Source: a virus
Lineage: Duplodnaviria > Caudoviricetes
IMG/VR virus record: IMGVR_UViG_3300037722_001728
Location: 1 to 33,225 of that record
Length of the DNA: 33,225 nucleotides
Direction: 5' to 3' (one strand)
The notes under the pieces are model-generated. The model was given only the letters and a program-made list of their open reading frames with translations. It did not search any database and was not told the DNA's origin. This document shows, in pieces, positions 1 through 13,296 of the stretch; positions within the stretch are counted from its first letter, which is position 1; each line of letters opens with the position of its first letter. A program made the translations under genes and the position numbers.

Positions 1-35
1 CTAGGTTGCAGGTTCGAGTCCTGCCCAGGGAGCCA
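1..35 (+). tRNA. 3' portion of a tRNA, probably tRNA-Asn; likely integration site
   Basis: T-arm GCAGG-TTCGAGT-CCTGC (8-24), acceptor strand CCAGGGA (25-31), discriminator G, encoded CCA (33-35). A G discriminator with an implied 5' TCC fits tRNA-Asn; the anticodon lies outside the window. Confidence 0.8.
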
Positions 36-1548
36 AATGTCCCGGTGTACTAACCGAGTTCCGGTTCGGTAACCCGTACCAGATCTCGACAGTACGCCGA
101 TCATGGATAAGCACCTTCTTCACCACCTGGCGGAGAAGGTGCTTCTTTTTTTGGTTGGTCCCTTTCTCCATCGTTTCCTCAAATTCGACCACCAGTCTTG
201 AGAGCATCTTCCGGTCCACGGGGGTAAGTTCAAGCCGCTCCCTCCGCGCTTCCAGGTCCTTCTTCTCGACCTCAAGTTCCTGCAACTGCGCCTTGAGATC
301 CTGGACCTTCTGGTTGCAGAGGTCGGGTTTCATGGACCCGGTCTCGAAGGCTTCAAAGTACCGATCTATCCTTGCCTGGATCCTCGCCGCTTGGTACTCG
401 ATCCTGGTGATCTCCTTCTCTAGGGCTGGTTTCTCCTTGCCAACAAGCTTGCTCGCCTCTTTCCAGACCTGGGCGATGAATCGCTCATCCCGGTACATTG
501 TCTTGACGTCCTGAATGATCGCGTTCTCGAGGTAGTCGGCCCGCACATAATCCTGATCGCAGTCATGGGTGTTCCAGCGCTTGGCGCAGAGGTAATATGG
601 GTACCTGCGCTCCTTCTTGTGGGTCGTGACCCCCACCATATGGCCCTTGCAGCGGGCGCACTTGATGGTCCCGGAAAGGAGGCGCTCGTCGCCATTTTCG
701 AACCGGCGTCCGCTCAGGCTCTCAACACGATCCTTCAAGAGCGCCTGAGCCTTGTCGAAGAGGATCTCCGAAATGATGGCGTCGTGATTCCCGTCGTAGA
801 CCACCTCGCGCCAGCGGATCTTCCCGACGTAAGTCGGATTCTTGATCATGTGCAGGATCACCCGTTTGTCCCACTTCTCTCCGCTGCGCTTGCGGTGCCC
901 TGCCTCGTTCATTTTGTGGCAGATCGTATGCACACCTTCCCTGCCGAAGGCGTACATCTGGAACATCTTGCGGACGATGAGCGCTTCTTCTTCATTGATG
1001 ATCAATCCCTTTTCTGGGTCCAACGTGAAGCCGTAGGGAACGTTCCCGCCCACGAATTGACCGCCCTTGGCCTTCTTCTCCATTCCGACCTTGGTCCGCT
1101 CCACAATGGTCGCGTGTTCGAACTCGGCGAAGACGCCCAGCATCTGCAACATCATCTTTCCGGCGGCGTTTGCCGTGTCAAACGGCTCGGTGATGCTCTT
1201 GAGCGTGACTCCGAACTTGGTGAGTTCGTCCACCATCTGTGCGAGCTCGCGTACTTTGCGGGAAAGGCGGTCCACGCGGAAGACCAGGAGGACATCGAAG
1301 GATTGGGCCGTGGCGTCGTAGAGCATTTCCTCCAAGCCAGGCCGGTTCATGTGAGTTCCGGATACGGTATCCCGATAGATTTTATGGAGCCGCCATTGGT
1401 CGCCGAATTGGGCTTTGCAGAACGCTTCCAACCGCTCCGACTGTGCTCCGAGGGAATATTTCTGGTGGTCCTCGTCTGTCGAGATGCGGGTGTAGAAAGC
1501 AACGCGAGGAGTTTGTCCGTTTCCACTTAATTGTTTATTTTTATTCAC
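1..1548 (-). CDS. Large serine recombinase/integrase (LSR1)
   Basis: Catalytic YTRIST and DRLSR motifs, recombinase domain (VPYGF), Zn ribbon (CARC...YYLC...C), coiled coil. RBS AGGAG before GTG; the stop codon lies within the tRNA sequence. Confidence 0.95.
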   Translation of the reverse strand: MNKNKQLSGNGQTPRVAFYTRISTDEDHQKYSLGAQSERLEAFCKAQFGDQWRLHKIYRDTVSGTHMNRPGLEEMLYDATAQSFDVLLVFRVDRLSRKVRELAQMVDELTKFGVTLKSITEPFDTANAAGKMMLQMLGVFAEFEHATIVERTKVGMEKKAKGGQFVGGNVPYGFTLDPEKGLIINEEEALIVRKMFQMYAFGREGVHTICHKMNEAGHRKRSGEKWDKRVILHMIKNPTYVGKIRWREVVYDGNHDAIISEILFDKAQALLKDRVESLSGRRFENGDERLLSGTIKCARCKGHMVGVTTHKKERRYPYYLCAKRWNTHDCDQDYVRADYLENAIIQDVKTMYRDERFIAQVWKEASKLVGKEKPALEKEITRIEYQAARIQARIDRYFEAFETGSMKPDLCNQKVQDLKAQLQELEVEKKDLEARRERLELTPVDRKMLSRLVVEFEETMEKGTNQKKKHLLRQVVKKVLIHDRRTVEIWYGLPNRNSVSTPGHLAPWAGLEPAT

Positions 1549-1765
1549 ATTAATCTCCTGTAAGCCCTGACACTCCTACCTCGGGGGGCGCCCGGATTCA
1601 AGGCAAATCCCTCCTTATTCCCGGTTCTGTGGCCGAGCTTCTACATAGAAATGGGAACCAAGGAGGAACTTCTGATATTGCTTTATTTGCAATAGTTTGT
1701 TTGTCTTAGGGTCGATAGGGTACAGGAGGGCATTTTTTAGTAGGTCAGCAGGAGCAAGGATATCA

Positions 1766-2545
1766 ATGGGTCATAACAGCCTCGGAAATCTGCCCCGTAC
1801 TCGAAAGTGGATTCAGGTTCTCGACCTGATTGGCGGCGGTGCAGGAACACCCGAGATTGCTGCTGCCACGATGGAAGCTTCACAGGGGGGGCTTGCTAAG
1901 GCAGCGCAAGACCGTGGTCTTGTATATGCAGTGTGGCTTCTTACCCAAATTCCAATAGCTGCTCGTGGTGAGAATTTTGTTTCAAGTCTTCGAAATCTCG
2001 GGCTTGAGGTATCTGACGCCGCCAGCCTGTTAGAGGTTACGGGAGCTTTTACCGAGGCCGTTGATGCGCATCTGCGCCGCAACGGTGGCCGGACCGACCT
2101 CGGCGAGATGGCCCAAATGGCGGCAGTCGAGACTATCACTGCACTCGGGATGCCCAAAACCGAAAGCTTGTTCGGTACCACTACGGTCGACGTCCAGCGG
2201 GCCTTCAAGACCTTCTCCACCAACAAACAATTCAGCGTACTGGCACGGGATTTTTTCGCACGCCTCAGTAGAAAGTACCTGACTTATTTTCTGAGCCGAA
2301 CGCTCTCCAACTACGTGGGCGGGAATGGTCGATTCGCCAATGTCTCCGAGCACGTCAAGTTCAATGAAGCTCTCGATCTGCATTGCCGCGAAGCTTCTCT
2401 GATCGTCGAGAGGTTCTCCGGGGGGTGGTTTTCGAAAACGAACTTTAAAGGTGGTATCACTCCCCAGAAGACCGCGGATTTCGTCTATGTCGCGCTGAAA
2501 AAGATCCGCGCGGAATTGGCTAGAGGAGCACACGCTCATGGCTAG
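1766..2545 (+). CDS. QatB-like helical partner protein of the QueC-family enzyme
   Basis: ATG at 1766 with RBS AGGAG/AAGGA gives MGHNSLG... (259 aa). The stop overlaps the QueC start. QatB-likeness is inferred from position, size and N-terminal Gly. Confidence 0.6.
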   Translation: MGHNSLGNLPRTRKWIQVLDLIGGGAGTPEIAAATMEASQGGLAKAAQDRGLVYAVWLLTQIPIAARGENFVSSLRNLGLEVSDAASLLEVTGAFTEAVDAHLRRNGGRTDLGEMAQMAAVETITALGMPKTESLFGTTTVDVQRAFKTFSTNKQFSVLARDFFARLSRKYLTYFLSRTLSNYVGGNGRFANVSEHVKFNEALDLHCREASLIVERFSGGWFSKTNFKGGITPQKTADFVYVALKKIRAELARGAHAHG

Positions 2546-4466
2546 AGAGCGTGTTGTGCTTTGCGGAAACCTGACAAGGCCAGAAGACAAAACGAGGAGG
2601 ACGGTCGGCCTGCAACTCTGGGGGAAAGCCCCGAATGTCACGCTCAAGATCAGTGACATTAGCTCTCGGATGGTGGCGAACATACCTCCCGTCTTGGTCG
2701 ACCTTCTGGAGATCGCAAGCTACGTCTACTGTGCTGACCAGGCGACCACCCGCGGCGAGAACGATGCCGACGATCACGGAGCCAAGTGGAGACGCCGATT
2801 TCGGTTTCGCATACCAGTCAGGGCACCCGAGTTGTGGTCATCCGACGCCGTCTTAACGCCGCTGTGCGACACGTTGGGATTCCTTTCGGATGACGAATAC
2901 GAGTTCAACTTTGAGAAAGCAGTTAATCCGCCTGAGTTGTTGCAGTACTTGGACTTCGGTGCCGATGGAGCCACGGGATTTAAGGCAGAGGAAGTCGTCC
3001 TGTTCTCGGGGGGTATCGATTCCCTCGGGGGAGCCGTCCGGGAAGCCGTCGTCGAGAAGCGAAAGGTTGCGCTGGTTAGCCACCGTTCCGCACCGAAGAT
3101 CTTCAGCCGACAAAAGAGCCTCCTACAGACTCTTGGAGAGTTCTGCGCAACTAAACCTTTCCACGTTCCTGTCTGGGTGTATAAGGAAAAAAAGCTGGGA
3201 AGGGAGTTCTCCCAGCGGACCCGATCGTTTCTTTATGCATCGCTGGCGGTCGTGGTGGCACGGATCTTCAACCTCTGGAGGATCCGTTTTTATGAGAACG
3301 GGCCGGTGAGCATTAACCTTCCGATCTCGGCGCAAATCGTCGGAAGTCGGGCAACTCGAACGACTCATCCCCAGGTCCTAAACGGTTTTTCACAGCTTTT
3401 CGGTTCTCTCTTCCAACGTCCGTTCACCGTGGAGAATCCGTTCATATGGAAGACTAGGGCAGACGTGGTTCAGTCGATACGCGAAGCCGGATGCGGCCGA
3501 CTGCTCAAGAATTCCGTGAGCTGCACGCGCGTATTCGAAATGACAAACATTAAGACCCACTGCGGCACTTGCTCTCAATGCATAGACCGACGATTTGCCA
3601 CACTATCCACCGGTTGCTCGGATGATGAAGATCCGGAGGAGATGTACGAAGTTGATCTCCTCAAAGGAGCGCGACAGCCGGGCGAGAGTCGGACGATGCT
3701 GGAGTCTTACGTTCGGACAGCCAAGCGGATCAAGGATATGCCCGACATGTCCTTCTTCTCCGAATTCGGGGAGGTGAACCGAGTAACCCGGAACATAAAG
3801 GGCTATACGGTGGATGAGGCGGCTTCTAACATCCTGGATCTCTACAAGCGTCACGCAGCGCAAATCTTCGGCGTCATCACCAAGGGGATTCAGGATTATG
3901 CAGAGGAAATCAACGGTGGCAAAGTGCCGGATTCCTGCCTACTCATACTGGCGCTGGAAGAGAAGTATAAGCGACAACTAACAAGCGAAGGGATGCCGCC
4001 AATACCGGTACTGGCCCTCGACGAAATTAAAGACGGTGAGGCCAATCGAAACTTGCTGGCGCGGATTGTGGGCAGCGGACGTTATGTGCTCGTGAACAAG
4101 AAGATCGGCCCGCGTCAGTTGTTTTTCACGTACCTGTTATTTGGGTCGCCGCGCGCGCTTAACTTCGACGGAGAACATATAACCGTCGTGAGCAAAGACG
4201 ACGTTATACAAGAGCTGCAGAAATGGAGGACCGAAGGATACCTGCAGTTTTCAGGGAAGGACCAAGGCGAACCTGCATACCGCGTGCAAAAGATGTGGGG
4301 AGAATTCGTCCGCCAGATCGAAAAGGAAAAGAACCTCAAGAATCTCCTCACGGACGACCATAAGGACAAAGACAAGAAGAGGTTATACGGCATCCGCCTC
4401 CAGCCCAATGAGACGCAGATTCTTATCCCAAGTCTTCCTGCACTCTTCAAAATGGTAAGCGGCTAA
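2538..4466 (+). CDS. QueC-family (QatC-like) PP-loop ATPase with C-terminal extension
   Basis: PP-loop LFSGGIDS, QRTRSFLY, YENG, TRTTHP, and Zn ligands SC...HCGTCSQC. Long N-terminal region (DLLEIASYVYCADQ) as in QatC; about 160 extra C-terminal residues. Confidence 0.85.
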   Translation: MARERVVLCGNLTRPEDKTRRTVGLQLWGKAPNVTLKISDISSRMVANIPPVLVDLLEIASYVYCADQATTRGENDADDHGAKWRRRFRFRIPVRAPELWSSDAVLTPLCDTLGFLSDDEYEFNFEKAVNPPELLQYLDFGADGATGFKAEEVVLFSGGIDSLGGAVREAVVEKRKVALVSHRSAPKIFSRQKSLLQTLGEFCATKPFHVPVWVYKEKKLGREFSQRTRSFLYASLAVVVARIFNLWRIRFYENGPVSINLPISAQIVGSRATRTTHPQVLNGFSQLFGSLFQRPFTVENPFIWKTRADVVQSIREAGCGRLLKNSVSCTRVFEMTNIKTHCGTCSQCIDRRFATLSTGCSDDEDPEEMYEVDLLKGARQPGESRTMLESYVRTAKRIKDMPDMSFFSEFGEVNRVTRNIKGYTVDEAASNILDLYKRHAAQIFGVITKGIQDYAEEINGGKVPDSCLLILALEEKYKRQLTSEGMPPIPVLALDEIKDGEANRNLLARIVGSGRYVLVNKKIGPRQLFFTYLLFGSPRALNFDGEHITVVSKDDVIQELQKWRTEGYLQFSGKDQGEPAYRVQKMWGEFVRQIEKEKNLKNLLTDDHKDKDKKRLYGIRLQPNETQILIPSLPALFKMVSG

Positions 4467-4490
4467 CCAACCTTCCGTTCGCATGATTCG

Positions 4491-4520
4491 AAACCGGCCC
4501 TCCATGGCCGGTTTTATTGT
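4491..4520 (+). terminator. Rho-independent terminator after the QueC operon
   Basis: AAACCGGCC-CTCCAT-GGCCGGTTT followed by a T-rich tail. Confidence 0.7.
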
Positions 4521-4685
4521 TTCCTTGCAAATGGTGTGAATTTTTCACATCCCATCCTTCCGTTAACCCCTTACCCCACAAGCATTTACAGCACACTATC
4601 GTCCTCTTTTCACACCCTTCAATGAAGATTTTGGATGGGCAAGAATTAGGAAAATTCTGCGTGGCAGGGCTACGGGAACGACACT

Positions 4686-6389
4686 TTGGTCAAGTCGAAG
4701 AACTTAAGCAGGGATGGGCAAGCAACCCGAATTGCCTTCTACACTCGCATTTCGACCGACGAGGATCACCAGAAGTTCTCTCTCGGCGCGCAAAGCGATC
4801 GGCTCGAAGCATTCTGTCGGGCCCAGTACGGCGACGATTGGCGGCTCCAGAAAATTTATCGCGATACGGAGTCCGGCACGCACATGAACCGGCCGGGCCT
4901 CGAAGAAATGTTGTTCGACGCTGAGGCTAAAGCCTTCGATGTCCTCCTCGTCTTCCGGGTCGACCGCCTCTCCCGTAAGGTCCGGGAGCTTGCCCAGATG
5001 GTGGATGAGCTCGCAAAGCATGGCGTCATCCTCAGGAGCATCACCGAGCCGTTCGACACGGCCAACGCCGCCGGAAAGATGATGTTGCAAATGCTCGGCG
5101 TCTTTGCCGAATTCGAACACGCCACCATCGTTGAAAGAACGAAAGTCGGGATGGAAAAAAAGGCGAAGAGCGGAAAGTGGGTTGGAGGCGTTGTGCCATA
5201 CGGTTACCAACTTGATCCGGAGAAAGGTCTGGTCGTTAAAGAGGACGAGGCAATTGTCGTTCGGAAGATGTTTCAGATGTACGCGTTTGGTAGGCAGGGC
5301 GTGCACACGATCTGCCACAAGCTTAACGAGGCCGGTTACCGGAAGCGGACCGGTCAGGCGTGGGACAAGCGAGTCATTCTCCACATCATCAAGAGCCCCG
5401 TCTATGTCAGCAAGGTCCGCTGGTGCGATGCGATCTACGAGGGCACCCACGAGTCCGTCGTATCGGAGGTCCTCTATGACAAGGCCAAAGGAATCCTGAA
5501 GGACCGCGTCGAAAGCCTGAGTGGCCGCCGGTTCGACAACGGCGATGAGCGTCTGCTCGCTGGGGTAATTAAGTGTTCCCGGTGCAAGAGTCACATGGTC
5601 GGGGTCAGCACCCACAAGAAGGATCGCAGGTTCCCGTACTACCTTTGCGCCAAGCGCTGGAACACCCGTGAGTGCGATCAGGATTACATTCGGGCTGACC
5701 ACGTCGAAGCAACGATCCTTCAGGACATCAAGGCCATGTTCCGGGACGAACCGTTTATCGCTCGGGTCCGGGAAGAGGCCAACAAGGGGCTTGTTGCCGC
5801 GAAACCAGATTTGGAGAAAGAGATCGCCTGGCTCGAGAACCAGGTGGCGAAGGCCCAGGGGGCCATCGACCGCTATTTCGAAGCATTCGAAACCGGGAAG
5901 CTAATGGCCGAGATGTGCAGCGAGAAGGTTGGGGACCTTAAAGCTCGGTTGGTTGGTTTGGAGGCCGAGAGGCGGGATCTGGAAACTCGCCGAAATCGTC
6001 TGGAGCTGCCAGCCATCGATTTGGAAATGGTCACCTCTTTCGTCGAGAACCTCGAGCAGTTGATCGCGGCAGGGACGAACCCAAAAAAGAAACACCTTCT
6101 CCGTCTACTTGTGAAGAAAGTACTCGTCCACGATCGGCACACGGTCGAGGTTTGGTACGCATTATTGCCCCCCTTTGTGGGTCATACGTCTGAGTCGGAA
6201 ACAGTCATCCAACGTCATTTCGGAACGCTCTCCCCGGCGGATGTCGATGAGTTGGTCGAGGGCGTGGCGGACATGGTCGTTGATTTTCTCAAGGGTGGCG
6301 TGAGTTCGAGTGGCAGGGGAAAAACCAGCAGAGAAGCGAAAACCGAAGTGGTCCAGCCGAAGATTCCAGACATGAGGAGGGTGGGATGA
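4686..6389 (+). CDS. Large serine recombinase (LSR2), paralogue of LSR1 with an unrelated C-terminal tail
   Basis: Same catalytic, recombinase, Zn-ribbon and coiled-coil layout. Colinear with LSR1 up to VEVWY (~6158). TTG start with a weak RBS. Confidence 0.93.
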   Translation: MVKSKNLSRDGQATRIAFYTRISTDEDHQKFSLGAQSDRLEAFCRAQYGDDWRLQKIYRDTESGTHMNRPGLEEMLFDAEAKAFDVLLVFRVDRLSRKVRELAQMVDELAKHGVILRSITEPFDTANAAGKMMLQMLGVFAEFEHATIVERTKVGMEKKAKSGKWVGGVVPYGYQLDPEKGLVVKEDEAIVVRKMFQMYAFGRQGVHTICHKLNEAGYRKRTGQAWDKRVILHIIKSPVYVSKVRWCDAIYEGTHESVVSEVLYDKAKGILKDRVESLSGRRFDNGDERLLAGVIKCSRCKSHMVGVSTHKKDRRFPYYLCAKRWNTRECDQDYIRADHVEATILQDIKAMFRDEPFIARVREEANKGLVAAKPDLEKEIAWLENQVAKAQGAIDRYFEAFETGKLMAEMCSEKVGDLKARLVGLEAERRDLETRRNRLELPAIDLEMVTSFVENLEQLIAAGTNPKKKHLLRLLVKKVLVHDRHTVEVWYALLPPFVGHTSESETVIQRHFGTLSPADVDELVEGVADMVVDFLKGGVSSSGRGKTSREAKTEVVQPKIPDMRRVG

Positions 6390-6514
6390 GGAGGAGGCTG
6401 AAAAATTTCCTTCTTTATCACGTTGTCGCTTCGTGGAGTGGTGCGCTTCCACCTCCCCTGACATGGGCGTTGATCTGCTGGTATCTCCTTAGGCCGTTTC
6501 TGAAGGGAGCGTGA
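6386..6514 (+). CDS. Small hydrophobic protein (42 aa), not in the ORF track
   Basis: RBS AGGAGG (6375-6380); ATGA overlap with the LSR2 stop and GTGA overlap with the primase start. MRRRLKNFLLYHVVASWSGALPPPLTWALICWYLLRPFLKGA. Confidence 0.6.
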   Translation: MRRRLKNFLLYHVVASWSGALPPPLTWALICWYLLRPFLKGA

Positions 6515-8259
6515 GGTTGGACGCCAAGGCATGGGCCGATACGGTTTCGATCATCCCAATCGAAGCTCGCGGGAAGAAACCTCTTATCTCTTGGGCCGAG
6601 TATCAACAGCGCAGAGCGGGGTGGGAAGAGCGCGAGGAGTGGAAGAATAAATTCCCCGGCTGCAACTGGGGGCTCGTGACCGGCAAGATTTCAGGACTCG
6701 TTGCGCTGGATTTTGATGGCGAGGAAGGATATGCGCTCCGGAAGGAGAAGAACGTCTACGGCGCGATCCCAACGAACCTGACGGGGAAAGGCTGCCATTG
6801 TCTCTTCAGGCATCCTGATCGTGAGATTCGCAATGGGGCTCGGCTTCTCCCAGGCCTTGACGTACGGGGCGACGGTGGTTACATCGTTATCCCTCCGAGT
6901 ATTCACCCATCAGGGAAGAAGTACGGGTGGCAGATCCCGCCCTGGATGGTTCCGGATCTACCCGAGCTTCCCGAGTGGGTATGGCCTCTCGTTGATCGGA
7001 GCAATGGCAATGGAGCTCCTCCGACCGCCTCCAATGAATCCACCCGCGACGGTCTCCCGCCCGGGGCGGCGAAGGGCACCCGGAATGCAACGGCCACCCG
7101 AGTGGCTGGACAACTCTTTAGGAAAGGGCTATCTGAAGCCGCCGTGATAGCCGTCATACGGGAATGGAACAAGAAGAACTGCCCGCCGTTGAGTGAAAAG
7201 GAACTGCTTCAGGTTGTCCAGTCGATTGGGAAAGCCGAACACCGCCAGAACCCGCCGACCCTTTTGGTCTCCGGTGTCGAATTCGTCGCCGAGAAGATGG
7301 ATGCCTCTCGGACCCTGATCGATCCGATCATGCCCGACCCGGCCCGGATCATCTTGGCCGGATTCGCAGGCGTGGGGAAAACATCGCTCGCCATGAACCA
7401 GGCGGCGGCTCATTCGGCCGGACTCTCTTTCCTGGGATGGCAGGCGGCCCGGAAGACGGTCCTCTATATCGATGGAGAGAACCCGCGGCCACTTGTCCAA
7501 AAGCGGCTCGGGATCATTTTCAACGCCATGGGCGGAAATCTCCGGAGCATCCATTTCGCTTTCCCAGAGCGGAAGCTCGACCTTGGTATTCCGGCGGGGC
7601 TCTCCGAACTAGAGGGGATGATCGGTCGCACCGGGGCGGGGATCGTCGTCCTCGATTCCTTCTTGAACTTCTTCAGCCTCAAGAGTGAGAACGACTCCGC
7701 GGAAACTCGCCGGGCCCTCGATGGCCTGACGACCCTCATGAGAATGACCGGGTGCTCGGTCCTCATCCTCGACCACACGACGAAACCTCTACGCGAGGCG
7801 CGAGGACGCGGCGAAGTGGGGCCGCCGACCCCCCGGGGGAGCGGTGCAAAGGTCGATTTCGCCGATGTGGTGCTCGTCCTCGAGGAGAAGAAGAGCGAGG
7901 GACGATTCCTCAAGACCCTGCACTTCACAAAACTTCGAGGTCACCCACCGATGCGGCCGCTCATTCTGGAAATGGACGGTCGACTTTGCTTTCGGCCGGT
8001 CGGTGAAGATGCTGTTGTTCCCGTGGAGATCATTCGCGAGGCGGTCGAGATGGACCCTGGGATCCGGACAGGCGACCTCCTCCGTCGCATTACGAACCGA
8101 ACCGGCGCTGGGGACCGAACGATCTATCGGGCCATTGATCGGGCGGAGGCACAGAAACTCATCTGCCGAGTCCAGCAGGGGCGCACCGTCCTGCTCTATC
8201 CCGTTGGGGGATTACTGCCATTGGCAAGCGAGCTCGATACGGGGTCACCCAAATGCTGA
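6511..8259 (+). CDS. Bifunctional primase-polymerase with PriCT-1 and RepA/AAA_25-like helicase domain
   Basis: Prim-Pol motifs GKKP, NWGLVTG, LDFD, GCHCLF, DVRGDGGYIVIPPS; PriCT GTRN...PPLSEKEL; Walker A GFAGVGKT; Walker B VVLDS. Confidence 0.9.
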   Translation: MRLDAKAWADTVSIIPIEARGKKPLISWAEYQQRRAGWEEREEWKNKFPGCNWGLVTGKISGLVALDFDGEEGYALRKEKNVYGAIPTNLTGKGCHCLFRHPDREIRNGARLLPGLDVRGDGGYIVIPPSIHPSGKKYGWQIPPWMVPDLPELPEWVWPLVDRSNGNGAPPTASNESTRDGLPPGAAKGTRNATATRVAGQLFRKGLSEAAVIAVIREWNKKNCPPLSEKELLQVVQSIGKAEHRQNPPTLLVSGVEFVAEKMDASRTLIDPIMPDPARIILAGFAGVGKTSLAMNQAAAHSAGLSFLGWQAARKTVLYIDGENPRPLVQKRLGIIFNAMGGNLRSIHFAFPERKLDLGIPAGLSELEGMIGRTGAGIVVLDSFLNFFSLKSENDSAETRRALDGLTTLMRMTGCSVLILDHTTKPLREARGRGEVGPPTPRGSGAKVDFADVVLVLEEKKSEGRFLKTLHFTKLRGHPPMRPLILEMDGRLCFRPVGEDAVVPVEIIREAVEMDPGIRTGDLLRRITNRTGAGDRTIYRAIDRAEAQKLICRVQQGRTVLLYPVGGLLPLASELDTGSPKC

Positions 8260-8450: not shown

Positions 8451-8759
8451 ATGCCTCGATCGCCGAGAGGACACTTCATGCGAGCAGCCGAACTTCGGAC
8501 GCTGGTCCAGGCCCCGTCGACCGTCAAGTATCGCAAGGACCCTCCGGCTCCGATCAAGTGCGACTTTTCCAACGAGCGACTTCACTACTGTATCGACATC
8601 GCGCTGCTCGTCGAGCGGTGCGACCGATCCGGGTACATGGCGGCGTACCTGTCGGGGATGCGGTGGGAGGCGATACCGGAGGTCTTCCGGGGGAAGTGCG
8701 CGGCGGATATTCGACGGCTTCGGCGGGAACTAAGGGATGGAGGTTATTCCGTTGAGTGA
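8451..8759 (+). CDS. Hypothetical phage protein
   Basis: RBS GGAGG upstream (alternative ATG at 8478); overlaps the next gene. Confidence 0.55.
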   Translation: MPRSPRGHFMRAAELRTLVQAPSTVKYRKDPPAPIKCDFSNERLHYCIDIALLVERCDRSGYMAAYLSGMRWEAIPEVFRGKCAADIRRLRRELRDGGYSVE

Positions 8760-8961
8760 CTGGCTCGTCGGAAAGAAGGAGGTGGCAAATGCACTCGGGG
8801 TGAGTGTTAGTACGTTGAAGCGGTATCTGAAGCGATACCCCGATTTCCCGGCGAACAGGCGGGGGGGAACGATCTACGTGTCTCCGGAGGCGCTGGATGC
8901 CTGGGTGGAACATCGGGCTTTAAAGAAATGCCCGATCTGCGGAATTACTATTCCCGCCTGA
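8737..8961 (+). CDS. Excisionase-like HTH protein (HTH_17/MerR type) with C-terminal CxxC
   Basis: GKKEVANALGVSVSTLKRY helix-turn-helix, wing, ALDAWV, then CPICG. Confidence 0.8.
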   Translation: MEVIPLSDWLVGKKEVANALGVSVSTLKRYLKRYPDFPANRRGGTIYVSPEALDAWVEHRALKKCPICGITIPA

Positions 8962-9270: not shown

Positions 9271-9834
9271 ATGCCTTCATGGAGAGAATTGGAATCTAAC
9301 TTTCGAGATTTAGAACCGGTTCTGAAATTTACGCGCGTTGACGGACAATGGGGAAGTGCTGGCGATTATTGGAGCGTTGTTGGGAGTAATGACCCCTATC
9401 CAATTAAGCGTTTCGAGGCCATTGCAAGGATAGCAGGCGAAAAGCTTAGAAATTCCCTTCAAGAAACTCCTGATCCGCCTCAAGATGTTGTGGGTGAACC
9501 CGATCCGGCTATATGTTGGTATAAGGGTGTGGCGCGGATCAGTAGGAGTATGAAGACTGATTATCCAGGCGAACATTTTGATAAAAAAGGGGATTCACTT
9601 GGTTTTATTTATACTGGCCGTATAGATAGAATTGCAGAGGCGTCGGCAATATTCTGTTTAGAGCTATCAGGCACTTTTCCCGAACCTGTACCACCAACAG
9701 TACCTATTGATAAACAAGAAATGAAGGTTTCTAAGTTACGAGTATTTTGGGACAAGTATGGGTCGCAGATATTAATCGGTATTGTTGTTACAGTTGTAGG
9801 AGGCATTATATTGTTAATTATAGTAGGCAAGTGA
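9271..9834 (+). CDS. Cassette 1: hypothetical protein with C-terminal transmembrane helix
   Basis: RBS AGGAG; lower GC; C-terminal ILIGIVVTVVGGIILLIIV; bounded by GTTAGAC and attC1. Confidence 0.8.
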   Translation: MPSWRELESNFRDLEPVLKFTRVDGQWGSAGDYWSVVGSNDPYPIKRFEAIARIAGEKLRNSLQETPDPPQDVVGEPDPAICWYKGVARISRSMKTDYPGEHFDKKGDSLGFIYTGRIDRIAEASAIFCLELSGTFPEPVPPTVPIDKQEMKVSKLRVFWDKYGSQILIGIVVTVVGGIILLIIVGK

Positions 9835-9848
9835 TTGATATTGACGCT

Positions 9849-9924
9849 GGCTAACCACAGGCTGAAGCAGACGGCTCACCTGGTGAACTTCCTGAGTGCC
9901 CTCAGCTTAGCCTGAGAGTTAGAC
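9849..9924 (+). repeat. attC site 1 (76 bp)
   Basis: R'' GGCTAAC ... CAGGCT(G)AAGC pairs with GCTTAGCCTG leaving one extrahelical base ... R' GTTAGAC. Confidence 0.9.
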
Positions 9925-9932
9925 GCTTAGCC

Positions 9933-10673
9933 GTGAGTGAGGGAATGATGTTTAAAGATATATGGATATTTTTTAAATCTGTTTTTAAAAACCTTAAATT
10001 ATTGCTTACAGGAAGTGTAATAATTGCCACATTGGTAATAATTGAACATATGTATGGCACTCCGCTGTCTTGGCCTAAATTTAGTCTATTAATATTATTG
10101 ATGTTGTTTATTTCATGTTTTATGGTCTGGCAGGAAGCACATCACAAGCACAATGATCTTTATAATAACTTAAAGCCGATGCTAAAGTTAGTATATTCTG
10201 ATGTTAAAGAGCGTCCGTGGTATCAAGAATTTAATTATCATGGTGATCCAAATGCAAATATATGGGAGCAATGCCAATATCGCTTTGGAATATTTAATGA
10301 AAGTCTGTCAGATATTCATAATATAAAAGTGGTTTTAGATAAAGTTGAGATTGGGGACTCTAATATTTTCTTTCCTGGTCTTTGCTTGCGGGTAATGGGA
10401 AGTAATACAAATTCGCCCATTTTTAATTTGGCACCTCATGCGACTCAGTATATTGATATATTTAGTTATACTCTTCGAAGAAGTGGCGAACAGGCTGAAT
10501 TTAATTGTATTACGTATGCAGAAATAGGTGAAAAAGAGATACCTGTTGGAAATTATCAATTATTATTTAGGGTTGATTGGGGCGGCATTCCACTATATAT
10601 AAAAACTATTGTAGAAAATTCAGCTACAAAGTTCCATTTTTATTTTAAAAATAATTTGGATGCTACCGTCTAA
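9933..10673 (+). CDS. Cassette 2: hypothetical membrane protein (two N-terminal TM helices and a beta-rich domain)
   Basis: Very AT-rich. Its stop TAA lies in R'' GTCTAAC, the exact complement of the cassette's own GTTAGAC. The start may be ATG 9945 or 9948. Confidence 0.8.
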   Translation: MSEGMMFKDIWIFFKSVFKNLKLLLTGSVIIATLVIIEHMYGTPLSWPKFSLLILLMLFISCFMVWQEAHHKHNDLYNNLKPMLKLVYSDVKERPWYQEFNYHGDPNANIWEQCQYRFGIFNESLSDIHNIKVVLDKVEIGDSNIFFPGLCLRVMGSNTNSPIFNLAPHATQYIDIFSYTLRRSGEQAEFNCITYAEIGEKEIPVGNYQLLFRVDWGGIPLYIKTIVENSATKFHFYFKNNLDATV

Positions 10674-10739
10674 CAACAGGCTGGAGCTGACGGCTGCCCT
10701 GCGGGAGATCGTGAGGCCCCGCAGCTTAGCCTGAGCGTT
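10668..10739 (+). repeat. attC site 2, R' core split by an IS
   Basis: GTCTAACAACAGGCTGGAGCTG...CAGCTTAGCCTGAGCGTT; removing the IS restores GTTAGAT. Confidence 0.88.
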
Positions 10740-10792
10740 GATATGGTGTGACCGGCGTCAAGTGGTTTTTCGATACGCCTCTCCTATTTTCC

Positions 10793-10980
10793 TTTTGCGG
10801 TGGGGCGGAGCGCGGCGATGTCGACGGTGATCATGCTGATATGCGCGGGTTTGACCGCATGACAATGATCCGTCCGGAGCTGCCTCGCTCTAGAAGCGCG
10901 GGTTGGGGACGATCGCCCTGCCGCATAACGCTACCGAGGGTTCTCCTTCCGTTCCCCACGTCCCCGCACCCACCGCAAAA
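10793..10980 (-). ncRNA. Predicted bridge/seek RNA of the IS1111-type element
   Basis: Closing stem (10793-10804 with 10969-10980) around two parallel stem-internal-loop units that match the target and donor sequences. Confidence 0.75.
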
Positions 10981-11011
10981 GCCCGAAGATCTTTGTTCTC
11001 CCGGAAAACCT

Positions 11012-12100
11012 TCAGATCCGACCGATCGCCCAGACAAACCCCGCCAGTTCCCGCGCCACGGCCACCGCGGCCACGGTCGTTCGCTTGCCGCGCATGACCA
11101 TGCGGGTGAATTTGCGGTACAGCCGTACCTCCGCCTTGCGCGCCGTCTCGATCACATCGGGAGGTTGTCCCTCGCGTCGCTTCCGGATGGTCTCCCCCGT
11201 GCGATGCGGCGGGTGCCGGTAGTGCCAGGCGGCCTCCACCAGGACACGCCGGAGGTGGGCGTTCCCGGCCCGCGTGAGGGATCCGCGCCGTTGTTTCCCG
11301 CCGCTGGAGTATTCCGAAGGGACCAGGCCGATGAAGGACATCAGGTCCCGGGGAGAAGCGAACCGGGACAGGTCGATCAACTCGGAATGGATCGTCATCG
11401 CCGTAAGCGTGCGCACGCCGCGCAAGGTCTTCAATCGCGCCACGGCGGGTGCGATGCCCGGATTCTGCGCCTCCTCTTCGATCCGCGCGTCGAGCCTTGC
11501 GACCCGCTCCAGTTGCTGGTCCACGGCCAAGACGTATTCGGTCATGACGGTTCCGGCGTTGGCGTCATCGAAGGTGAGCGCACGGATCCACCGCCAGTGC
11601 TCCCGGGTCCACGATTTTCCTTCAAAGCGTTGCCCTCGACGCAGGAGGAATTTCTGCAGCCGGTGGCGGCAACGCACGAGGTCCTCGTTGGCGTCCTCCC
11701 GGGCACGCACGAGATCCCGCAAAGCTTCCTGGGCAGGCGTGGGGACGCAGATCGCGGTGAGTTCTCCCATGCGGTGCATGCGGGCCAGTTTCTCCGCGTC
11801 GCGCCGGTCCGTCTTGATCCGGTCCCCGGGCCGCGTGGGAATCAGGGAAGGGGCGATCACGTCGCAGGGGATTCCCTTTCCGTCGAGGAATCGCCGCAGG
11901 TCGTAGCCGCAGGGACCAGCCTCGTAGACGCACCGTGCCTTCCCAAGCCCCGCGATACGCCCCGCCAGCCGCTCCTTCCCCTTGGCCGTGTTCGGCGTCT
12001 CCCAGCGGGTCATGACGGTTCCCGAATCGCCGGAGATGCTGACGGTGACAATGTTTTCCTTGTGGACGTCCATTCCGACCCAGGTGGTAGAATTCGACAT
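11012..12100 (-). CDS. IS110-family transposase/recombinase
   Basis: RuvC-like DEDD motifs VGMDVHK, YEAG, KTDRRDA; C-terminal GLVPSEYSSGG; RBS AGGAGG. Confidence 0.95.
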   Translation of the reverse strand: MSNSTTWVGMDVHKENIVTVSISGDSGTVMTRWETPNTAKGKERLAGRIAGLGKARCVYEAGPCGYDLRRFLDGKGIPCDVIAPSLIPTRPGDRIKTDRRDAEKLARMHRMGELTAICVPTPAQEALRDLVRAREDANEDLVRCRHRLQKFLLRRGQRFEGKSWTREHWRWIRALTFDDANAGTVMTEYVLAVDQQLERVARLDARIEEEAQNPGIAPAVARLKTLRGVRTLTAMTIHSELIDLSRFASPRDLMSFIGLVPSEYSSGGKQRRGSLTRAGNAHLRRVLVEAAWHYRHPPHRTGETIRKRREGQPPDVIETARKAEVRLYRKFTRMVMRGKRTTVAAVAVARELAGFVWAIGRI

Positions 12101-12243
12101 GACCGGTCCCTCCTGTATTGTGGCTCTGGTCGGGTTCGCACCCGACTAACCCACGAAGATACACGACGGGGCCGGTCACACCATAATGTCTAGATTGACC
12201 AATATGGATACGATCTGAGATCTATGTACGAGAGGCGAATAAT

Positions 12244-13296
12244 TTGACATTTTGTGTCGGGTGGAAGTATCAAGATTCTATTTTCCTCGTGGCTGACTCG
12301 GCTGTAACAAAAAGCACTCCACTTACCTTGCCGCAATCTAGCTTCGGCGAAACACATCCATTTACAGGTGAGTATTATGTAGAGGAGGGTTTGTTAAAAA
12401 TAGTTCCAATTTCAAATAATTTTGTTGTAGCTTTTTCAGGAGATGTATTGATGGCAACAGAAATAATAAAATTTATAAAAGAACACCTTAGGAATAATAG
12501 CGATATTATATTATTGTTTAAATCTATGGCCAAATCGTTGGGTCCTTTTGAAAAAAATCGCGCTGTATCTTTAATCATCGCAACCACAATAGGCGGACAT
12601 CTAGATTTAGTGAAATGGGAAACGGAAGACTCACATAATCTTTTACAGGGGGATGAATATTTGCAAATAGGGAGTGTCCAACCATTTCATGGTTTGATGA
12701 CACAAGCTATTTTGTCACTATTGGCAAAAGGAAATCTGCCAATTGAACGCATGCTACCAATATCTACGGCAATTATTCAGTCATTTGGGATCCATTACGA
12801 CATGATGAGCCAGTATATTGGCGGAATGATTTATGGACTTTCAATAGATAGTAAAAACATGCTTTGTTGGCAGGAAGACACAAGATATATCCTTTACGAT
12901 CCGGAGTTTAAAGACATTGGTTTTATAACGTGCTTGTGTAGAGGGGATGCAGTATCTATAAGGTCTACTATTACAAATGACACTCGGGTATTGTTGCATA
13001 GCTCCAACTCCCTTCGACCAAATGATTGGAATGATAAATGGAAAGAACTACTTATTTGCGATTATCAGTCATGTTCAGTTAAATATTGGTCTTTTTTAAG
13101 CAAGAAGGACCATAATATAACTGTCGTAACATTGCCCGTAAAAAGTAATGGAGGTAAATATTTCATAATGAAGTATCTTGGGGAGGGGAAATATGATTTT
13201 TCTATTAATCCAAAATTTGTCGAAATGTTAACTTCGCCTCTCTTGGAAAATGGTGAATTAGGTATACCATATAGATTGACGTGTATTGAAGGATAG
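12244..13296 (+). CDS. Cassette 3: Ntn-hydrolase/proteasome-beta-like protein
   Basis: MTFCVGW...LVADSAVT...LKI...VAFSGD...QIGS pattern. The cassette runs from reconstituted GTTAGAT to the complementary ATCTAAC. Confidence 0.65.
   Translation: MTFCVGWKYQDSIFLVADSAVTKSTPLTLPQSSFGETHPFTGEYYVEEGLLKIVPISNNFVVAFSGDVLMATEIIKFIKEHLRNNSDIILLFKSMAKSLGPFEKNRAVSLIIATTIGGHLDLVKWETEDSHNLLQGDEYLQIGSVQPFHGLMTQAILSLLAKGNLPIERMLPISTAIIQSFGIHYDMMSQYIGGMIYGLSIDSKNMLCWQEDTRYILYDPEFKDIGFITCLCRGDAVSIRSTITNDTRVLLHSSNSLRPNDWNDKWKELLICDYQSCSVKYWSFLSKKDHNITVVTLPVKSNGGKYFIMKYLGEGKYDFSINPKFVEMLTSPLLENGELGIPYRLTCIEG

Follow-up and report, generated by a model that had tools for sequence, protein, structure and literature searches.

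What does a gene pair that resembles the QatB-QatC core of an anti-phage system do inside a prophage? The question is raised by IMG/VR provirus record IMGVR_UViG_3300037722_001728, which was analysed at its full length (33,225 bases; called the window below). Between two serine recombinase genes, just upstream of the primase operon, this siphovirus-like prophage (by its gene content in PHROGs and Pfam searches of the window open reading frames, ORFs) carries a gene for a partner protein, P0001, followed by a gene for a QatC-like enzyme, P0002. An earlier note on this DNA had described a coupled two-gene operon, in which a QatB-related protein starting with Met-Gly precedes a QatC-like QueC enzyme with about 160 extra residues of winged-helix type, and had suggested that protein deazaguanylation controls a DNA-binding output where a repressor would be expected. 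We consider it probable, by a moderate degree, that this diverged QatC-type PP-loop enzyme and its QatB-fold partner make up a self-contained, prophage-borne anti-phage module of the QatBC type.

The enzyme is a diverged relative of QatC

P0002 resembles QatC over residues 50–405. It is matched by the QatC model of PADLOC (E 5.3e-49), by NCBIfam NF041925 (QatC; E 6.9e-55) and by the solved QatC chain 9vlk_A (E 1.4e-26, residues 51–364). The NF041925 score is 186.6 bits against an equivalog cut-off of 280, and the identity to a canonical QatC from a qatABCD locus is 25%. Judged by sequence, P0002 is a clear QatC relative and not an equivalog.

The core of P0002 has a PP-loop QueC-type domain between an N-terminal extension and a helical C-terminal one, with sub-boundaries placed by alignment to solved QatC, and the whole protein exceeds the solved QatC chains (465/466 amino acids, aa) by 177 residues. 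The motifs listed for QatC are HP, RxRxxxY, DxYxxxF, P(x)4TK, the T-x-T site and D63 of the E. coli protein (PMC13329287 and PMC13279940). In P0002, the PP-loop S157-G-G-I-D-S162 and the zinc cysteines (C329, C342-G-x-C345-x-x-C348-x-x-R-R) are present, D55 is the equivalent of E. coli D63, and T273-R-T275-T-H277-P278 aligns to the invariant Thr278/Thr280 of P. aeruginosa QatC. R227-x-R229-x-x-x-Y and D119-x-Y-x-x-x-F125 align to solved QatC and are conserved, and the P(x)4TK motif reads TR. Across 22 family members, SGGxDS, D55, T273-R-T275 and the Cys cluster vary little or not at all.

Pfam and PHROGs call part of P0002 QueC-like, and its relatives are annotated as 7-cyano-7-deazaguanine synthase by their sources, which could suggest that P0002 is a nucleoside- or DNA-modification enzyme, i.e. 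a phage QueC that makes 7-deazaguanine bases for the phage's own DNA. However, the canonical QueC model TIGR00364 gives only 22 bits against its cut-off of 150. In QatC, Thr278/Thr280 stand where QueC and Cap9 have the CDG-binding Tyr/Asp (PMC13279940), and P0002 bears Thr at these positions, as QatC does. Moreover, no DpdA/TGT, QueD or QueE-like protein was matched among the window ORFs scanned, and an obligate partner with Gly2 has no role in base synthesis. We regard base modification as a highly improbable explanation.

The partner is predicted to have the QatB fold

No sequence-level link was found between P0001 and QatB. P0001 has no family match in Pfam, PADLOC, NCBIfam or PHROGs, and phmmer against PDB sequences yields no QatB link up to E 10. 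The QatB model NF041924 finds nothing in the window up to E 1, nor in genome G001, which carries the pair; hhalign of the partner alignment against 7 canonical QatB sequences gives a probability of 1.3% (E 0.041).

It is the structural model that connects the two. The model of P0001 (pLDDT 88.5, pTM 0.89) consists of 12 helices, the first of which begins at residue 13. In Foldseek, solved QatB takes the top two rows (E 1.6e-2, prob 1.00, TM 0.52/0.60), while all entries from rank 3 downward have a TM of 0.25 or less. In VIA-align, the model is superposed on QatB 9y01_A with Z 12.7 and a root-mean-square deviation (rmsd) of 3.8 Å over 206 of 215 QatB residues, and the next entry has Z 5.7. Helical folds can reach high Z by chance, as the tool itself warns; the wide gap in Z and the near-complete coverage argue against a chance match here. 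P0001 is thus predicted to have the QatB fold, its model matching solved QatB alone, at an identity of only 15–17%.

M1, G2, H3 and W15 are invariant in 54 non-redundant partner sequences, and the family (257–264 aa) has P10 and W15 near its N-terminus. Canonical QatB starts with MGTS and has a Pro...Trp motif some 16–18 residues in (PMC13279940). P0001 begins with MGH, not MGTS, and its free N-terminal tail has about 12 residues vs 30–90 in QatB. An in-frame TTG at position 1697 would lengthen the product of gene 1 by 23 residues; in 73 of 77 partner homologues, Met (or the start) followed by Gly stands at the aligned column, most of them without anything upstream.

The two proteins are predicted to form a QatBC-like complex

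The complex was predicted from the enzyme core (residues 1–480) and the partner, each with its family alignment, in three runs with three controls. The score is 0.91 in all three runs and 0.00 in the best control; among solved complexes, 116 of 157 attain the score mark used, as against 2 of 215 mismatched pairs. At least 90% of contacts recur between the runs, and the partner has a pLDDT of at least 89.

In the predicted interface, residues 256–275 and 381–430 of the enzyme meet residues 1–7 and 10 of the partner. Enzyme residues 256–275 are the loop that bears the T-R-T site. In the QatBC crystal structure, the interface is formed by the QatC loop N265–H282 and helices alpha12–14 (PMC13279940), and the modelled interface corresponds to both of these surfaces. 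The score may partly reflect memory, because QatBC complexes have already been solved. From these models, P0001 and P0002 are predicted to form a QatBC-like complex with the N-terminus of the partner at the enzyme.

The C-terminal tail resembles OmpR/PhoB-type winged-helix domains

The conserved family core ends near residue 474, leaving a tail of 168 aa, which agrees with the ~160 extra residues noticed before. The tail is modelled as a compact alpha/beta domain (pLDDT 92.5, pTM 0.86). In a VIA search of 48,161 chains, the top 16 rows are taken up entirely by OmpR/PhoB-type DNA-binding domains (Z 8.2–6.5), with alignments of 88–101 residues that span the whole target domain. The best row is BaeR (Z 8.2, rmsd 3.0, 100 residues aligned), and the others include VanR, AdeR, CadC, PmrA, ArlR, CssR, GlnR, ToxR, PrrA, PhoP and VicR. 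A Z near 8 counts as middling for VIA, so the fold is likely and not proven: the tail is likely an OmpR/PhoB-like winged-helix domain, and its predicted fold suggests that it binds DNA.

Sequence searches with the tail returned little. Pfam gives nothing at E up to 1 save an irrelevant DUF4148 at 0.19, and no PF00486 match; Foldseek has no row below E 0.14; the tail profile finds nothing among PDB sequences at E up to 10; a protein atlas search provides one weak lead, WHD_DUF6293 (score 0.80). W563, R582 and W587 (W89, R108 and W113 in tail numbering) are invariant, and these invariant residues suggest a binding surface rather than a catalytic site.

The tail is the changing part of the family. 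In the 80 loci described below, the sequences past residue ~474 fall into at least four unrelated classes, which are of ~222 aa (54 loci), ~169 aa (8 loci, including the window), ~122 aa (6 loci) and ~138 aa (2 loci), together with a few singletons. Nothing significant was found by hhalign between the classes (best, class 0 vs class 2, E 0.0039). The ~122-aa class (L067) has a sub-threshold match to Trans_reg_C (7.8e-5, 23.1 bits vs a cut-off of 26.2), and one singleton has a sub-threshold match to HTH_17 (8.1e-5); both are in line with the fold assigned to the window's tail. The tail is the part of the family that is swapped, while the core and the partner are not.

The tail domain of the window is also found at the C-terminus of QueC-less proteins of 250–450 aa (P0123, P0126, P0131, P0136, P0137, P0152 and others). 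At least three kinds of N-terminal part occur among them, none with QueC or with a family match in Pfam or PADLOC. The tail is a mobile module, because it also ends unrelated proteins with heterogeneous N-terminal parts; since these parts match no family, they say nothing yet on its role.

The pair is a conserved family without detected qatA or qatD neighbours

To see how the pair occurs elsewhere, one genome per species was scanned, which gave 377 relatives, and the best 80 loci were kept. Among the 120 best protein matches listed, about 80 cover at least 96% of the 642 residues of P0002 at 57–87% identity, so the long enzyme form is a family and not an accident. A partner homologue lies directly upstream in 77 of 80 loci, the three misses being contig ends or partial copies, and in most loci the two genes overlap, by 4, 8, 11 or 20 nucleotides (nt).

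We then surveyed the neighbours of the pair, four ORFs per side (474 ORFs in 253 clusters). In the 150 representatives scanned in Pfam, which covered the 30 largest clusters and, beyond them, ORFs of 180 aa or more, neither KAP_NTPase (PF07693) nor TatD (PF01026) was found. The same procedure on 7 canonical qatB loci recovered KAP_NTPase in all 7 and TatD in 6. One of five whole genomes carrying the pair contains a KAP NTPase, which does not adjoin the pair.

These results bear on an alternative, namely that a qatABCD locus has decayed or become fragmentary, with the loss of qatA and qatD. The QatC-like enzyme and the order of partner then enzyme, which is that of qatB-qatC, would agree with such decay. 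However, the pair stands together in 77 of 80 loci with QatA/QatD in none of the 150 neighbour representatives, both are intact proteins with strong conservation (mean column identity 72% and 55%), the complete enzymes have 553–809 aa vs 421–449 aa for QatC in the 7 canonical qatABCD loci, and P0002 shares only a quarter of its residues with canonical QatC. Decay is contradicted by the census and was rejected as barely credible.

The neighbours fall into two groups, genes of mobile elements and known defence genes. A large serine recombinase is present in 30 of the 80 loci and DUF2924 in 16, and tyrosine integrases, AlpA/HTH_17, primases, AAA_24, PDDEXK and RusA were also observed. Defence neighbours are type I and type ISP restriction-modification, Shedu SduA_C, BREX PglZ/BrxL, Cas3/Cse1, GmrSD, Mrr, Abi_C and RES. 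Some loci lie in chromosomal defence islands: L003 between type I restriction-modification and Shedu, L015 beside BREX, and L012 beside Cas3/Cse1, all three without phage genes within four ORFs.

The family is found chiefly in proviruses and in uncultured bacteria from many phyla, with relatives in 63 IMG/VR records. No full-length relative was found in the collection of cultured phages searched, where two weak Listeria-phage rows were returned. Among plasmids, 133 records match, none of which covers 80% of the query, and most of the 15 rows listed are annotated as qatC or hypothetical. Of 401 genomes sampled from one phylum, 2 contain the partner family (one of them the centre genome) and 9 contain canonical QatB.

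A near-identical pair of 262-aa and 700-aa proteins was observed in L019, L020, L062, L063, L066, L069–L072, L075–L077 and L079–L081, with the same recombinase, DUF2924 and AAA_24 neighbours. These loci come from metagenome-assembled genomes (MAGs) labelled Geobacteraceae, Verrucomicrobiota, Hydrogenedentales, Gammaproteobacteria, Desulfobulbus and others, which indicates either a very recent spread of one element or mis-binned contigs.

From the above, the observations of the earlier note are confirmed. Both ORFs lie where it had placed them as a coupled operon, the Met-Gly start holds, and the enlarged enzyme is QatC-like with a winged-helix-like end of middling score. The note had also named three outcomes that would refute its idea, and the idea survived all three: the C-terminal domain is winged-helix-like, the partner is related to QatB by its predicted fold, and homologues do not co-occur with qatA/qatD in the neighbourhoods scanned. 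Likewise, QatA (KAP NTPase), QatD (TatD), CD-NTase and DpdA/TGT-like proteins, which it had reported missing, have no match among the window ORFs scanned (PHROGs, Pfam, PADLOC), and no cI-type repressor was recognised among the 19 window ORFs.

Defence is the favoured function

Defence is favoured because the only characterised relatives of the pair defend, QatBC alone suffices against lambda and P1, and the pair also occurs in chromosomal defence islands. QatB and QatC without the other two genes are reported to defend against lambda-vir (PMC13279940) and against lambda and P1 (PMC13434339). The neighbourhood of recombinases, integrases and defence genes fits a defence cargo.

In the predicted complex, the active-site loop and the C-terminal helices of the enzyme hold the partner, with the first residues of the partner in the interface. 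Removal of Met1 is usual before Gly, and in the partner it may expose the Gly2 amine. By analogy with QatBC and Cap9-CdnD, the enzyme would adenylate a carboxylate with ATP and join this carboxylate, possibly a 7-deazaguanine, to that amine. Judging from its fold, the OmpR-like tail could carry the complex to DNA, where it would sense incoming phage DNA, act on it, or adjust the expression of the pair's own operon. In this reading, the tail would take the place that QatA (DNA-binding) and QatD (a nuclease) have in the four-gene system.

Several points weigh against an anti-phage module of this kind. Defence, modification and DNA binding are all properties that we infer for the family. At the sequence level the partner has no link to QatB (NF041924, hhalign), its tail is short (~12 residues vs 30–90) and begins with MGH instead of MGTS, and its assignment rests on the gap of 12.7 vs 5.7 in a test where helical proteins can score high. 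The enzyme stays under the QatC equivalog cut-off (186.6 vs 280 bits), and the best Z of its tail, 8.2, is middling, with nothing significant from Foldseek or Pfam. Beyond the 30 largest clusters, the Pfam scan of the neighbours took in only ORFs of 180 aa or more. Canonical QueC passes its cut-off in only 3 of 5 pair-carrying genomes, which are MAGs and may be incomplete, so a deazaguanine donor is not assured. Finally, helix-turn-helix (HTH) type tails and a site beside integrase and replication genes would also suit a regulator of the element.

This last point leads to the strongest rival, in which the pair is a regulatory switch of the mobile element: the tail would bind operators of the recombinase or replication genes, and lysogeny, excision or replication would be governed by whether the partner is modified. 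The likeness of the tail to OmpR/PhoB DNA-binding domains, and of other tail classes to Trans_reg_C and HTH_17, agrees with a switch, as do the position of the pair, with a recombinase gene on either side and the primase operon shortly downstream, the lack of a recognised cI-type repressor in the window, and the palindromes in both flanking intergenic regions. However, the same pair is found in the phage-free surroundings of L003, L015 and L012, its nearest characterised relatives are defence proteins, and the two flanking intergenic regions share one 8-mer, no more than shuffled sequences do (mean 1.4). The completeness of the provirus record is estimated at 73%; therefore DNA outside the window cannot be judged, and a repressor may lie elsewhere. 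A switch seems unlikely to us.

A phage module for counter-defence or addiction, whose enzyme would poison or protect the host by modifying the partner, is very unlikely. It would suit two tightly coupled genes borne by a prophage, but the pair occurs in chromosomal defence islands away from phages, and in PADLOC, Pfam and PHROGs it resembles no known family of toxin-antitoxin or anti-defence proteins.

The interpretation in the earlier note is therefore partly supported. It took deazaguanine attachment by QatC as established, while the reaction of QatC is given as unresolved in PMC13279940; the placing of the pair where a repressor would be expected was set aside because the record is incomplete, and the same pair also occurs in chromosomal defence islands without phage; and the control of a DNA-binding output by protein modification is not supported as written.

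A wider proposal may still be made, tentatively and with more doubt than confidence: the family could be a large group of two-gene immune or control modules, in which a QatB-like protein is tagged at its N-terminus and this modification is coupled to an exchangeable DNA-binding tail that reads sequence. If this is true, each tail class would direct the same protein-modification chemistry to a different DNA, phage or self, and the short-tailed MGH partner would be the simplest natural system for solving the QatC reaction.

Organization of the operon and the provirus

The coordinates of the operon and of the surrounding genes are summarized in Table 1. The overlap of the two genes suggests translational coupling, and a terminator-like hairpin follows 3' of the pair. 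No sigma-70-like site was called on the + strand within the upstream intergenic region. Neither palindrome is above chance in a shuffle test.

Table 1. Features of the gene pair and of the provirus, in window positions
Feature	Position	Strand	Basis or remark
Upstream intergenic region, presumed promoter/operator of the pair	1549..1765	+	Sequence read
Palindrome TATTGC-N7-GCAATA (6+6)	1676-1694		Upstream of gene 1; candidate operator
AGGAG ribosome-binding site of gene 1	1750-1754	+	12 nt upstream of start
Gene 1, QatB-like partner P0001, 259 aa	1766..2545	+	Start ATG-GGT (Met-Gly-His); N-terminus MGHNSLGNLPRTRKW
Gene 2, QatC-like enzyme P0002, 642 aa	2538..4466	+	GAGGAG upstream, a purine-rich ribosome-binding site
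Gene overlap, 8 nt, ATGGCTAG	2538..2545	+	Gene 2 ATG overlaps gene 1 TAG
QatC-like core of P0002, residues 1-474	2538..3959	+	Alignment to solved QatC and family homology
C-terminal tail of P0002, residues 475-642, and stop codon	3960..4466	+	Structural model
Intrinsic-terminator-like hairpin, 10-bp stem, 6 G-C pairs, T-rich tail	4490..4515	+	Closes the operon
Palindrome TGTGA-N5-TCACA	4535-4549		3' of the pair's terminator, before second recombinase gene; candidate operator
Large serine recombinase	1-1548	minus	PHROGs/Pfam
Second large serine recombinase	4686-6389		PHROGs/Pfam
Primase-helicase	6511-8259		PHROGs/Pfam
HTH_17/excisionase-like protein	8737-8961		PHROGs/Pfam; sole HTH recognised among 19 window ORFs
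Four matchless genes, partly low G+C	9271-13296	+	
ParB-methyltransferase, then terminase, portal, protease, capsid and tail genes	After the four matchless genes, in that order		

The two large serine recombinases that bracket the pair are paralogues with 71% protein identity in inverted orientation, and their genes form an inverted repeat (arms 202–1530 and 4704–6032, 74% complementary). The QatBC-like pair might move as a recombinase-bounded cassette.

On the + strand, window positions 1–45 resemble by eye the 3' part of a tRNA gene, with the T-arm GGTTCGAGTCC and the end ...GGGAGCCA, and the left recombinase ORF reads through this tRNA-like stretch to a TAG at positions 3–1. From this resemblance, the provirus probably ends within a tRNA gene that served as its attachment site. 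At the window start no tRNA was called by ARAGORN, as expected for a fragment.

The four matchless ORFs at 9271–13296 (187, 246, 481 and 350 aa) have no match in PHROGs, Pfam or PADLOC. G+C across this region is 0.41–0.45 with a block of 0.67 at 11001–12000, and 0.55–0.65 elsewhere, and the region may be a second foreign cargo. Sister phages were sought through the primase, and only one near-identical fragment was found.

Comparison with known systems

The OmpR/PhoB effector domains (Trans_reg_C; BaeR, VanR, CadC, ToxR) share with the modelled tail a beta-sheet, helices and a C-terminal hairpin in whole-domain alignment. In contrast, the tail of P0002 has no PF00486 sequence match, contains extra elements (~168 vs ~100 aa) and is not joined to a receiver domain.

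Cap9-CdnD of type IV CBASS is comparable in that a QueC-family enzyme acts on the N-terminal Gly of an adjacently encoded partner, as the pair would do by analogy. However, Cap9, at ~185 aa, is a minimal QueC that has the canonical Tyr/Asp for CDG binding, and its partner is a CD-NTase, while P0002 is QatC-type with Thr at those positions. CD-NTase and Cap10 were not found among the window ORFs scanned, and P0001 is modelled with the QatB fold and not the CD-NTase fold.

The closest known system is the QatB-QatC core of QatABCD from P. aeruginosa and E. coli (PDB 9y01/9y02, 9vlk, 9zee), with which the pair shares its gene order and coupling. P0002 and QatC have in common the PP-loop QueC-type core, the N- and C-terminal extensions, SGGxDS, the T-R-T site and the zinc cysteines; P0001 and QatB are both helical and of the same predicted fold, with a Met-Gly start and a conserved Pro and Trp soon after; and the loop and C-terminal helices by which P0002 is predicted to bind its partner are those that QatC uses. 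The differences are that qatA and qatD were not found nearby in the pair's family, that P0002 is diverged (25% identical, below the equivalog cut-off) and extended by a 168-aa winged-helix-like tail, and that P0001 lacks detectable sequence similarity to QatB, starting with MGH on a much shorter N-terminal tail.

QatABCD is under active study in 2026, in structure and enzymology. QatC is described as catalysing an unresolved reaction, with the CDG-recognition Tyr/Asp replaced by Thr (Gao, Wassarman and Kranzusch 2026, PMC13279940). In the available portions of the QatABCD literature (PMC13279940, PMC13329287, PMC13376578, PMC13639016, PMC13434339), no description of a natural two-gene QatBC form or of the tail fusion was found. 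Operon forms were counted starting from QatD in PMC13434339, and because of this starting point such a count cannot find a QatD-less form.

A 2026 survey reports qatA or qatD nearby for only ~34% of the QatC cluster and did not analyse the remainder (PMC13329287); our family may explain part of the roughly two-thirds of QatC-cluster proteins in that survey without qatA/qatD neighbours. Laboratory truncations showed that QatB and QatC suffice against some phages, and the present finding shows a natural two-gene form: a separate conserved family without detected QatA/QatD, with a very short substrate tail and with a predicted DNA-binding-type domain fused to the enzyme. Compared with the four-gene system, the pair is simpler to study biochemically, and it leads to a concrete hypothesis on the contributions of QatA and QatD.

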